Notes under the pieces: generated by a model | Databases searched by the model: none | The model's input: the letters and a program-made list of their open reading frames with translations, nothing else | What the model was told of the DNA's origin: nothing | Shown: positions 15,371-17,884 of the stretch, in pieces | Position numbering within the stretch: the stretch's first letter is position 1 | Layout of the letters: every line of letters starts with the position of its first letter | Source: Escherichia phage HMD-6 | Reading direction: 5' to 3' (one strand) | DNA: 64,000 nucleotides | Sequence record: PQ505080.1 | Made by a program: the position numbers and the translations under genes

Positions 15371-17884
15371 TCTGCTCTTTTCCTACCATAAACGGCCCTA
15401 CCTGGCAAGTGGAATAATTGACGAGCCATTAATCCCGCACACTGTACAGATATACACGTAAAATAGTTATTGCATAATCTTTCATACTGTGGTAGCAGGG
15501 TCATTTTTACACGTTTTCCTTCCAAAAAATGCACATAATGCAGCTATTGCACAAAATTTAACCTGATGCACATTTTCAGTATACTGTCAACAATTAAAAA
15601 CCCTTATAAATCATACACTTACCCCACCACAAAAGCGTGCCCTACGTGAAAAATCGGGTGTAACTATAGCCGACAGATCTCAGAATCCACGTACGATCGC
15701 CATTCTATAGCCTGCGAAGTATTTATTCCAACCACAGAATAACGGAATAGTCAACACCTTTATACAATAATTATTCGTATAAACTGCATAACATAAATTT
15801 TCTCATGTGTCAACATTTTTCGTAAACAGTCCGAAATTGTCACGATAGGTTACTATAATCAGAGAAATCTTTAGTCGTCTAATGTTTACTGCACATAACT
15901 ATACTGACTGGAATCATTAGATGACTAATAGAAAGATAAGAAATAGTTAATAATGTAATTGTTTTACCTGTAACAATAAGGCAACTATGCAAACGAATGT
16001 CATGGCGCGACGGAGTCGCGACATAATATAAAAGCAGTAACAATCACCCCCGTGATAGTTTGCCTGCAAACTATTGATCAGATCATAGTTGCCTTGTATT
16101 TAGTTAATCATGACATAATAAGCAAGGCAACTATAGATCTGATCATAGTTGCCCTGCTTTTATATTATGTCATAGAAACGCCCGAAGGGGTGACCTGGTC
16201 ACCTGGCATAGCCAGCGAAATATTATTACCTTGCTAATTGTTTTCATGCAAACGAATGTCATGGCTTATCATCTTTGTGTAAACTGTCAGGGTGTAGACT
16301 ATTCAGGTGTAAACTATCCAGGCGTAAACAGTCTGCGCAGGAACAATCTATACGTGAACAATTTATACGTGAACAGTGAAACATGAAATAATAACAGTAG
16401 TTATTGTGTCAAAAGTGTATAAGGTGCCCGGTGTGTATAAGGTGTCACATTGTGCCCGGTGTGTCAGACAAGTTTTTCTCCTCTTTGTCAAGCACTGCAT
16501 GAAAAATTTACAATCTGGTATGGTAGCATTTTTGCGGCCCTGTTTACATTCAGAAGTGTATGTATAATCCTTGTTGTGTGGGCGTTTAGACGTCTGGACG
16601 GTCAGAAGTCCGCAGGTTAATAACTAATCTATTGGTTGCTAACTATATCCCCCACAAATAATAAGAAATGCAATTGTTATATGCGTAAACAGTAACTCAT
16701 GCTATCAATCCCTGTATGTATCGCCAGTGGTGCGCATAATGGGTATTATGTTAAATTGCCCGTAATGATAACGATTCTCACAATGATAAGTATTCTCATT
16801 CATCCACACAAAATAGCTTGCAAATGTTGCGCCACTGTGTGAACGGCCTCGCCTATTAATTTGCCTCACTGCTCCGATATTTGAGAATTGTTATAAGAAT
16901 GAGAAGTATTCCCATTCCGTCCGCCTGGCAGCACTCCTGTAGGTCAGGTCAAAATCGTGGCAGAACTGGACCCCCTTCAGATATTTCTGGCTGACTCTTC
17001 AGGCCTGTGTGGGAAAAGCCAACCTCTCCGGCGGCGGGGAGGGATCAATTAAAAAATTTACGTGGGGTATGAAGCGCTCTTCAGGCAAGGTGTGTATTAT
17101 GGGATGAAACCCTCTTCAGGCAATGATATTTGTGGGTGTGATATTTGCTGGAAAGCCAGATATGACGGGACTCCCGGCGGGGCAGGGGTAGTACAGGCAG
17201 GGAAAATGTGGAGAATGTAGTTGGGGAAATTGATCAGGCAGGTAGAGTATGGAATATGTTACAGGTATGTTAAATATGGAGGTAAGATATTTGTAAGGTT
17301 TGTGCGTAAAATCAAAGACTTAAGTGGTGTTGTGGTATTTTCTATAAATAATTCAAGTTTAATAGGTGATATTTGCCTCTATCCACTTTGTATGGTATCC
17401 ATATTCTAATTGAATTGGTTTACAAGTGTATATAAAGTATACAAATTAAAGATACAAGAAACCCCCCTCCCCCTTCGGCTACCATTCACCTTTTCCTCTG
17501 ACTGGTACTTAAACACTTATTCAGACTCTTCAGGTTATCACCCATATATCATATGGCAGTGACTGGTGTCCTCCGGCCCCTCTTTCGTCACCCGTCCGCT
17601 TCGCCATGCTAATGCCATAGCTAACTGTTCGGTTGTTCACCCTGTTCACTCAGGTGTATCTCCATACCCCTTCAAACCGAAGAGAACAGAAAACCCGAAT
17701 TACTCGGTAAAAGAAAAGAGAAGAACTTAATTTTATCAGGATAGGCAAGAATGTCAAGGCATGACTGCTCACTAAACAAGCAAACAGTCATGTGTGGGAG
17801 GTAAGTGATTGTGGTGGTAGGAAATTTAGTTGAAAGGTGTGTTATAGGTGCTTCCAGCACTTTAGACGGGCAGCTAATTGTGTG
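15371..17884. other. 2.5-kb non-coding repeat-rich region between convergent gene blocks (candidate origin, packaging or injection-control region)
   Basis: No convincing ORF; dense direct/inverted repeats, iteron-like arrays, nested palindromes, Fur-box-like motifs. Confidence 0.6.
16276..16378. repeat. iteron-like array (GTGTAAACT / CGTAAACAGT / ACGTGAACA variants, about 6 copies)
   Basis: Direct reading of tandem 13-16-bp related repeats. Confidence 0.55.

Follow-up and report, generated by a model that had tools for sequence, protein, structure and literature searches.

A variable tandem repeat array beside the terminal repeat of an rV5-like phage is a candidate site for genome-end recognition

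Introduction

In phage lambda, cosB (R3-I1-R2-R1) carries the binding sites of gpNu1, the small subunit of terminase, beside the nicking site cosN. In phage T7 (NC_001604), the motif CCTAAAG occurs three times within the 160-bp terminal repeat, eight times in an array of 13-bp period at 174–340 and twice just before the right repeat, with all copies in one orientation. Here we describe a tandem array of 15-bp units, array A, in a 64,000-nucleotide stretch of Escherichia phage HMD-6 (sequence record PQ505080.1), hereafter the window. Array A is a real, non-coding repeat whose core is under selection, whose copy number is unstable and which is tied to one end of a direct terminal repeat (DTR). 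Our preferred reading, which we hold tentatively, is that it is an amplified binding site for a phage protein at the concatemer junction, with a part in end recognition or packaging.

Positions 15500–17100 of the window match 119 GenBank phage records at 80–96% identity; those labelled ‘Escherichia’ belong to Vequintavirus (rV5-like myoviruses), and 18 of the 119 are labelled ‘Campylobacter’ phage. At the DNA level, similarity to the array and terminal-repeat region was confined to the genus Vequintavirus, sensitive blastn included. Vequintaviruses are described as having direct terminal repeats of 458–459 bp, with packaging that begins at a fixed point (PMC6563267, PMC7471380). In the rV5 genome paper the zone that holds the array appears, without explanation, as a ‘non-coding’ box between genes 163 and 164; the authors ascribed the skew change there to transcription, did not find an origin and took the genome to be circularly permuted (PMC3606486). 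Our search of the literature on the function of T7 SRL/SRR or pacB, and on Vequintavirinae transcriptomes, yielded nothing usable.

Results

An array with a constrained core in a gene-free zone

The units and the terminal repeat beside which they lie are as follows.

15820–15830, + strand: isolated unit TCGTAAACAGT, in array orientation, 447 bp upstream of the array
16277–16381, + strand: array A, seven direct units with an exact 15-bp period, each a core RYGTRAAYWRT plus a free spacer of 4–5 bp
16467–16925, no strand: DTR, 459 bp, present once in the window; the physical ends map to 16467 and 16925
16540–16550, − strand: partial unit in inverted orientation (reverse complement ATGTAAACAGG), within the DTR; kept in 20 of 20 genomes
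16683–16693, + strand: isolated unit GCGTAAACAGT, in array orientation, inside the terminal repeat

Units of array A start at 16277, 16292, 16307, 16322, 16337 (degenerate), 16352 and 16367 and read, in order, GTGTAAACTGTCAGG, GTGTAGACTATTCAG, GTGTAAACTATCCAG, GCGTAAACAGTCTGC, GCAGGAACAATCTAT, ACGTGAACAATTTAT and ACGTGAACAGTGAAA. An earlier, sequence-only reading of this DNA had listed six units; all of them are present where it placed them, and its count becomes seven with the degenerate fifth unit at 16337, which it had skipped. The isolated copies of CGTAAACAGT that it reported are likewise real, at 15821–15830 and 16684–16693.

Tandem Repeats Finder called two 15-bp sub-arrays, at 16277–16329 (score 64) and 16341–16375 (score 63). 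Self-matching at lag 15 reached 63 of 90 positions at the array against a background of 24.3 ± 4.7; this was the highest value of all lags from 8 to 23 across the 64 kb, making the array the strongest short-period signal, and the maximum over all lags and positions in 200 Markov-1 simulations was 48. Window-wide, GTRAAYWRT is not enriched (18 matches against 12.6 ± 3.8 expected), so it is no dispersed motif of promoters or operators; seven of the 18, all on the + strand, are located between 15822 and 16693. A weight matrix of the 11-bp core, applied to both strands of the 64 kb at a threshold of at least 12 bits, gave seven matches, namely five array units and the isolated units at 15820 and 16683, every one on the + strand and within 870 bp of the terminal repeat.

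For comparison we drew on GenBank phage records and assembled a set of 20 genomes. Across 53 distinct units, positions lying outside the hexamer used for finding the units were near-invariant: R at −2 (51/53), Y at −1 (48/53), W at +6 (49/53), R at +7 (52/53) and T at +8 (52/53). The spacer of 4–5 bp showed no base preference among the same units, and start-to-start spacing across relatives was 15 or 16 bp or multiples of these, and nothing else. The isolated units are also kept: that at 15820 has a CGTAAAC core in 20 of 20 genomes and the full core in 16 of them, while that at 16683 is present in all 20, with few changes, mostly at the degenerate core positions (R at −2, W at +6).

Around the array is a gene-free zone of ~2.4 kb (about 15534–17885), which + strand genes enter from the left and − strand genes from the right; the GC skew switches sign near 18–19 kb. 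Conservation of the zone is 85–98% over 15543–16160 and ~93% over the terminal repeat, with the array as its most variable spot (a positional footprint). Small open reading frames (ORFs) cover the array at 16231–16386 (+) and 16259–16384 (−), and these are not conserved; a coding role was ruled out, as relatives differ in the length of the variable segment by numbers not divisible by 3 and the periods are 15 or 16 bp. A known RNA was rejected, an Rfam scan of 15000–18500 at E ≤ 1 having returned no family. Several sites of host factors (Fis, IHF, CRP, LexA, TyrR, Lrp and OmpR/PhoB) were compared with the units by eye at the level of consensus, none convincingly, and a CsrA sponge, suggested by CAGG/GGA in some units, was ruled out because GGA is not conserved in the units of relatives.

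The array adjoins one end of the terminal repeat

The HdK5 and ECP2309 records carry exact 459-bp repeats at both ends, which map to 16467–16925 of the window. Records also begin at these positions: Pr121LW and EcoIv14a_Aya start at 16467 (+), and HdK5 and bov22_2 at 16925 (−). Because records with defined ends map there, the window holds one DTR copy, as at a concatemer junction. The same records fix the DTR boundaries, and array A thus sits in unique DNA 89–190 bp outside the left boundary, at that distance from the cut site. On the right DTR flank, 16926–17480, column identity was 89%, with no variable array and no matrix match. As the unit at 16683 lies inside the terminal repeat, it is present at both virion ends.

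A second class of short repeats fills the space next to the cut.

16405–16466, + strand: array B, TGTCA pentamers at ~9–12 bp spacing, with duplicated GTGTATAAGGTG and GTGCCCGGTGTGT

Array B is also variable, with 1–6 TGTCA copies in relatives over the last ~60 bp before the cut, and its last TGTCA forms the DTR boundary to the base, the cut falling between TGTCA and GAC (16466/16467).

Unit number varies among relatives

We delimited the variable segment by an invariant 20-bp anchor, ATGCAAACGAATGNCATGGC, and an invariant boundary block, GTCA followed across the boundary by GACAAGTTTTTCTCC. Between them the number of units ranged from 0 to about 11 among the 20 genomes.

0 units: V18 (array and second anchor deleted)
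1 unit: navn, Ph203, FFH2
2 units: WM
Up to 9–11 units, degenerate ones counted: rV5, JES2013

Nineteen of the 20 genomes thus have the array, with 1 to about 11 units. The V18 assembly, without an array, retains both isolated units (15820, 16683) as well as the inverted partial copy (16540–16550). A scan of IMG/VR with the conserved flanking anchor found two loci only.

One unit at the equivalent position in two other genera

KPP-1 (Mydovirus) has a 514-bp terminal repeat, established by coverage and PhageTerm, and T7-type packaging (PMC9862379); we located its locus through the published terminal-repeat coordinates. The best match to the core matrix in the 4.5 kb around that repeat, GTGTAAACTGT, lies 182 bp outside the boundary and has the orientation seen in the window, where the outermost array unit lies 190 bp outside. 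The 15-mer GTGTAAACTGTCAAG occurs exactly among the units of ECP2309, FV3 and APCEc02, agrees with the window's first unit at 14 of 15 positions, and occurs once, again exactly, in each of two sequences from outside the genus, a KPP-1-like contig and phage 4MG (Seunavirus). Each of these single copies is followed, 135–193 bp on, by a block homologous to the boundary and promoter-like block of the window, (A/G)ACA...TTTTTCTC...TTGTCAAGC...ATTTACAA. Measured from the conserved TTGTCAAGC, the boundary reported for KPP-1 and that of Vequintavirus are at most 1 nt apart. The promoter-like part of this block is the following element, at which TTGTCAAGC...ATTTACAA is conserved in Mydovirus and Seunavirus.

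16485–16514, + strand: sigma-70-like promoter match TTGTCA-18-TACAAT, 18 bp inside the DTR boundary

The single unit at the equivalent sub-terminal position in Mydovirus and, going by the predicted boundary, Seunavirus suggests that the ancestral state was probably one site, with amplification in Vequintavirus. The sequence-only reading had taken the array for degenerate tandem protein-binding sites, a view with which the data agree: the 11-bp core is constrained, the spacer is free and one unit recurs at 15 of 15 positions in two other genera. Of the features for which that reading expected conservation in relatives, unit number is not conserved (0 to about 11), but core sequence and location are.

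The wider surveys added less. An IMG/VR scan for the 15-mer unit gave 25 matches, most of them probably no more than chance would give in so large a collection, two contigs of Vequintavirinae size being the informative ones. The Seunavirus records SalP219 and SEW_6S do not start at the predicted boundary block, and gene order around the conserved 101-aa neighbour gene differs in Mydovirus, Seunavirus and Certrevirus.

A possible role in end recognition or packaging

We propose that array A arose when one ancestral protein-binding site, specific in sequence, was amplified in this lineage; it would mark the unique DNA just outside one DTR boundary. In replicated concatemers, a phage-encoded DNA-binding protein would sit head to tail on the GTRAAYWRT units, most likely either the small subunit of terminase or an accessory factor of end processing. 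The bound protein and the TGTCA repeats adjoining the cut would together help to position the nuclease that makes the end at 16466/16467, comparable in logic to gpNu1 on the R elements of lambda cosB and in layout to the T7 SRL array. Unit number would drift between 0 and about 11 through slippage or unequal recombination, because, we propose, the units are redundant. We infer protein binding, the identity of the binder and the role in end recognition or packaging from position, core constraint, exclusivity to this locus and conservation across genera.

Several observations weigh against this proposal. The TGTCA repeats, which touch the cut, are at least as good a candidate for recognition by terminase, and the terminase genes lie outside the window. 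The array and the 15820 copy of its motif occupy the left DTR flank only, unlike in T7, and, to our knowledge, no function has been established for the SRL and SRR arrays of T7. Among relatives, the nearest unit lies anywhere from about 75 to 190 bp from the cut, a spread that argues against a rigid measuring mechanism. Should the V18 assembly be right, the phage can do without the array, which may then have a modulatory part only or may be backed up by the isolated units.

A broader claim, which we regard as possible but doubtful, is that the GTRAAYWRT units and the TGTCA repeats together are the cis-acting junction-recognition signal of Vequintavirinae. They would then form the first defined ‘pac’ element for a large myovirus with T7-style short terminal repeats, read by a conserved DNA-binding subunit, and unit number would set how efficiently each strain packages its DNA.

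Other elements around the terminal repeat

Three further features lie to the left of the DTR.

15971–16171, no strand: nested inverted repeats GGCAACTAT / ATAGTTGCC, conserved, with 18-nt arms at 16020/16154 and GATC clusters, between the anchors
16246–16265, + strand: conserved 20-bp anchor ATGCAAACGAATGTCATGGC, directly left of the array, with a second perfect copy at 15987–16006
16384–16411, no strand: short AT-rich inverted repeat TGAAATAATAAC / GTTATTGTGTCA, between arrays A and B

The two 20-bp direct repeats bracket 16007–16245, a conserved inverted-repeat block with GATC clusters (TGATCAGATCA, AGATCTGATCA). FV3 has one anchor copy and is without the inverted-repeat block, the pattern expected of a deletion between the repeats; V18 is without the second anchor copy and without the array.

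Operator-like palindromes AATGAnAAnnATTCTCATT were found inside the DTR at 16761–16801 and 16882–16917, the latter ending 8 bp from the genome end at 16925, and also at 5985–6004 and 6121–6140. They resemble the E. coli Fur box, with 14–17 of 19 matches to GATAATGATAATCATTATC, and the terminal regions of both KPP-1 and 4MG carry similar palindromes, AATGATTATCATT and AATGAGAATnATT. Host Fur or a phage regulator could bind such palindromes.

To the right of the terminal repeat, 16926–17890 is non-coding over ~950 bp. The aligned stretch at 16890–17480 has 89% column identity, many invariant runs and 1-nt indels, and 16926–17890 holds G-rich hairpins (for example, CCTCTCCGGCGGCGGGGAGG) and a repeated CTCTTCAGGC, with no Rfam match. 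This segment could be an unrecognised RNA or a DNA-level signal.

Transcriptional control and neutral repeat expansion

The units might instead serve transcription, as operator or upstream sites through which a phage regulator acts on the promoter-like element at 16485–16514; in that case the promoter would gain its upstream array only after genomes join into concatemers. One candidate regulator is encoded 3 kb away.

19457–19762, − strand: phrog_639 ‘transcriptional regulator’ protein, 101 aa, 100% identical in >110 Vequintavirus records

This protein shows 42–58% identity across other Vequintavirinae genera and had no informative match in Pfam, NCBIfam or PDB sequences; it is a candidate DNA-binding protein for the elements of the gene-free zone. 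Its presence and its strict conservation favour a regulatory function for the units, as do the position of the promoter-like element 18 bp inside the DTR boundary, in a block conserved across three genera, and the further operator-like palindromes in the terminal repeat. We nevertheless consider this reading unlikely. The units lie about 110–215 bp upstream of the promoter, further than is usual for sigma-70 activators or repressors, and no annotated or conserved gene follows for about 1.4 kb, a flank whose 1-nt indels mark it as non-coding. Moreover, the motif is absent from all other intergenic regions of the 64 kb, and a unit number that runs from 0 to 11 fits poorly with such control.

We give slightly less credence to a mostly neutral minisatellite, in which one site is or once was functional and the tandem copies are slippage products without a role, formed near a recombination-prone end. 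That the array is the most variable spot of a gene-free zone otherwise 85–98% conserved would fit this, as would a unit number of 0 to about 11 and the existence of viable phages with 0–2 units (V18, navn, Ph203, FFH2 and WM). The core, however, is constrained in 53 distinct units despite diverged spacers, which neutral decay of duplicates would not give, and the spacing is strictly 15 or 16 bp.

Replication origin and partition

The sequence-only reading had named replication initiators among the likely binders, so that the units would be origin iterons that bind an initiator and nucleate unwinding of neighbouring AT-rich DNA. Such an assignment is understandable for tandem direct repeats with a conserved core that have an AT-rich 60-bp stretch directly to their right (16360–16419, 27% GC), conserved palindromes with GATC clusters nearby and three DnaA-box-like 9-mers with one mismatch within about 800 bp (16432, 16800 and 17207; none perfect). 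Window-wide, one-mismatch DnaA-box-like 9-mers (TTATCCACA) number 32 against 19.9 ± 4.6 in shuffles, 0 of 100 shuffles reaching 32, and they form no obvious cluster at the array.

We think an origin at the array improbable, for the assignment loses ground on several counts. Copy number runs from 0 to 11, and a period of 15–16 bp places successive units on opposite faces of the helix; typical iterons are spaced at about 11 or 22 bp. The ten ORFs scanned between 13.6 and 20.1 kb had no Pfam match, and their PHROGs matches were to one ‘transcriptional regulator’ and otherwise to families of unknown function; none of the ten matched an initiator, ParA/ParB or a terminase. The position of the array 89–190 bp from the DTR boundary, which the sequence-only reading had no means of seeing, also speaks against the assignment. 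The skew change that the rV5 paper placed at this locus could speak for an origin (PMC3606486), but cumulative GC skew peaks at the array, in a region of converging gene blocks, and has its minimum near 56 kb; in rV5, skew follows transcription (PMC3606486), which qualifies the use of either point.

A separate, canonical module of initiator gene, iterons and AT-rich DNA at 57589–58230, with a repeat unrelated to GTRAAYWRT, counts further against an origin at the array.

57589–57939: initiator-family ORF, 116 aa; phrog_12838 ‘replication initiation protein’, E = 2.5e-80; Pfam HTH_36 helix-turn-helix
58014–58096: four direct repeats of 21 bp, CTGTCCGTAATACGGACACTA, all containing an internal dyad, after the initiator-family ORF

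After the 21-bp repeats comes an AT-rich stretch of ~130 bp with GATC sites, at whose end (58230) the module closes. Across 118 records the module is 94–99% identical and hardly changes in length; it sits close to where cumulative GC skew is lowest and gene blocks diverge. Initiator gene, 21-bp repeats and AT-rich stretch are in the layout expected of an initiator-dependent origin, which argues against a replication-iteron role for array A; 57589–58230 is the probable replication origin module. We found no description of 57589–58230 as an origin, and GenBank labels the ORF at 57589–57939 either ‘putative transcriptional regulator’ or ‘replication initiation protein’.

The partition proteins that the sequence-only reading also offered as binders can be set aside, as a centromere-like site for a ParB-type protein has nothing in its favour but the generic resemblance of a tandem array to such sites and is contradicted by gene content: neither the scanned proteins from around the array nor the larger window proteins scanned gave a ParA/ParB match, no lysogeny or plasmid-maintenance genes were seen in the window, and the rV5 group consists of lytic myoviruses whose linear genomes have terminal repeats (PMC3606486, PMC7471380).

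Observations elsewhere in the window

The anaerobic ribonucleotide reductase NrdD is split into two ORFs on the − strand, at 33946–34938 and 35662–36831, which match the C-terminal and N-terminal halves of one PHROG profile. The 183-aa ORF between them, at 35059–35610 (− strand), is possibly an intron or homing-endonuclease insertion. Within a transfer RNA (tRNA) cluster at 60477–61289, ARAGORN calls a 99-nt tRNA at 60946–61044 with a four-base anticodon (atcc) and no amino-acid identity called.

Discussion

The rV5-like phages are widely isolated and are candidates for therapy and biocontrol. A compact cis element beside the genome end offers a starting point for finding the end-recognition protein, and also for packageable plasmids, transducing particles and phage engineering. 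With the array now separated from the probable origin at ~58 kb, both elements are directly testable.

How array A compares with described systems depends on the feature considered. With iteron origins (lambda ori/O, P1 oriR and theta plasmids) it shares direct repeats with a conserved core adjoining a short AT-rich stretch, and it differs from them in having no adjoining initiator gene, a period of 15–16 bp and an unstable copy number. Lambda cosB is similar in that several elements of ~16 bp lie ~50–200 bp from the cut, on one side only and in packaged DNA. It is unlike the present locus in its 12-nt cohesive ends, where a 459-bp terminal repeat is found here, and in its three R sites of fixed number and spacing with an IHF site, where 0 to 11 units are found here.

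The features shared with the T7/T3 SRL/SRR regions concern the arrangement of the genome end. Both have a short, exact direct terminal repeat with fixed ends; both have, in unique DNA and beginning some tens of bases from the repeat, a degenerate tandem array that combines a conserved short core with a variable spacer; and both have further motif copies in one orientation inside the terminal repeat (here that at 16683; three in T7). The motifs differ, GTRAAYWRT being unrelated to CCTAAAG, and so do the periods, 15–16 bp here against 13 bp in T7. The phage described here is a myovirus of about 137 kb without the T7 RNA polymerase system, and, whereas T7 has motif copies on both repeat flanks, the other flank here is conserved and free of an array. 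The resemblance to T7 would thus be one of architecture only, and not of a proven mechanism.

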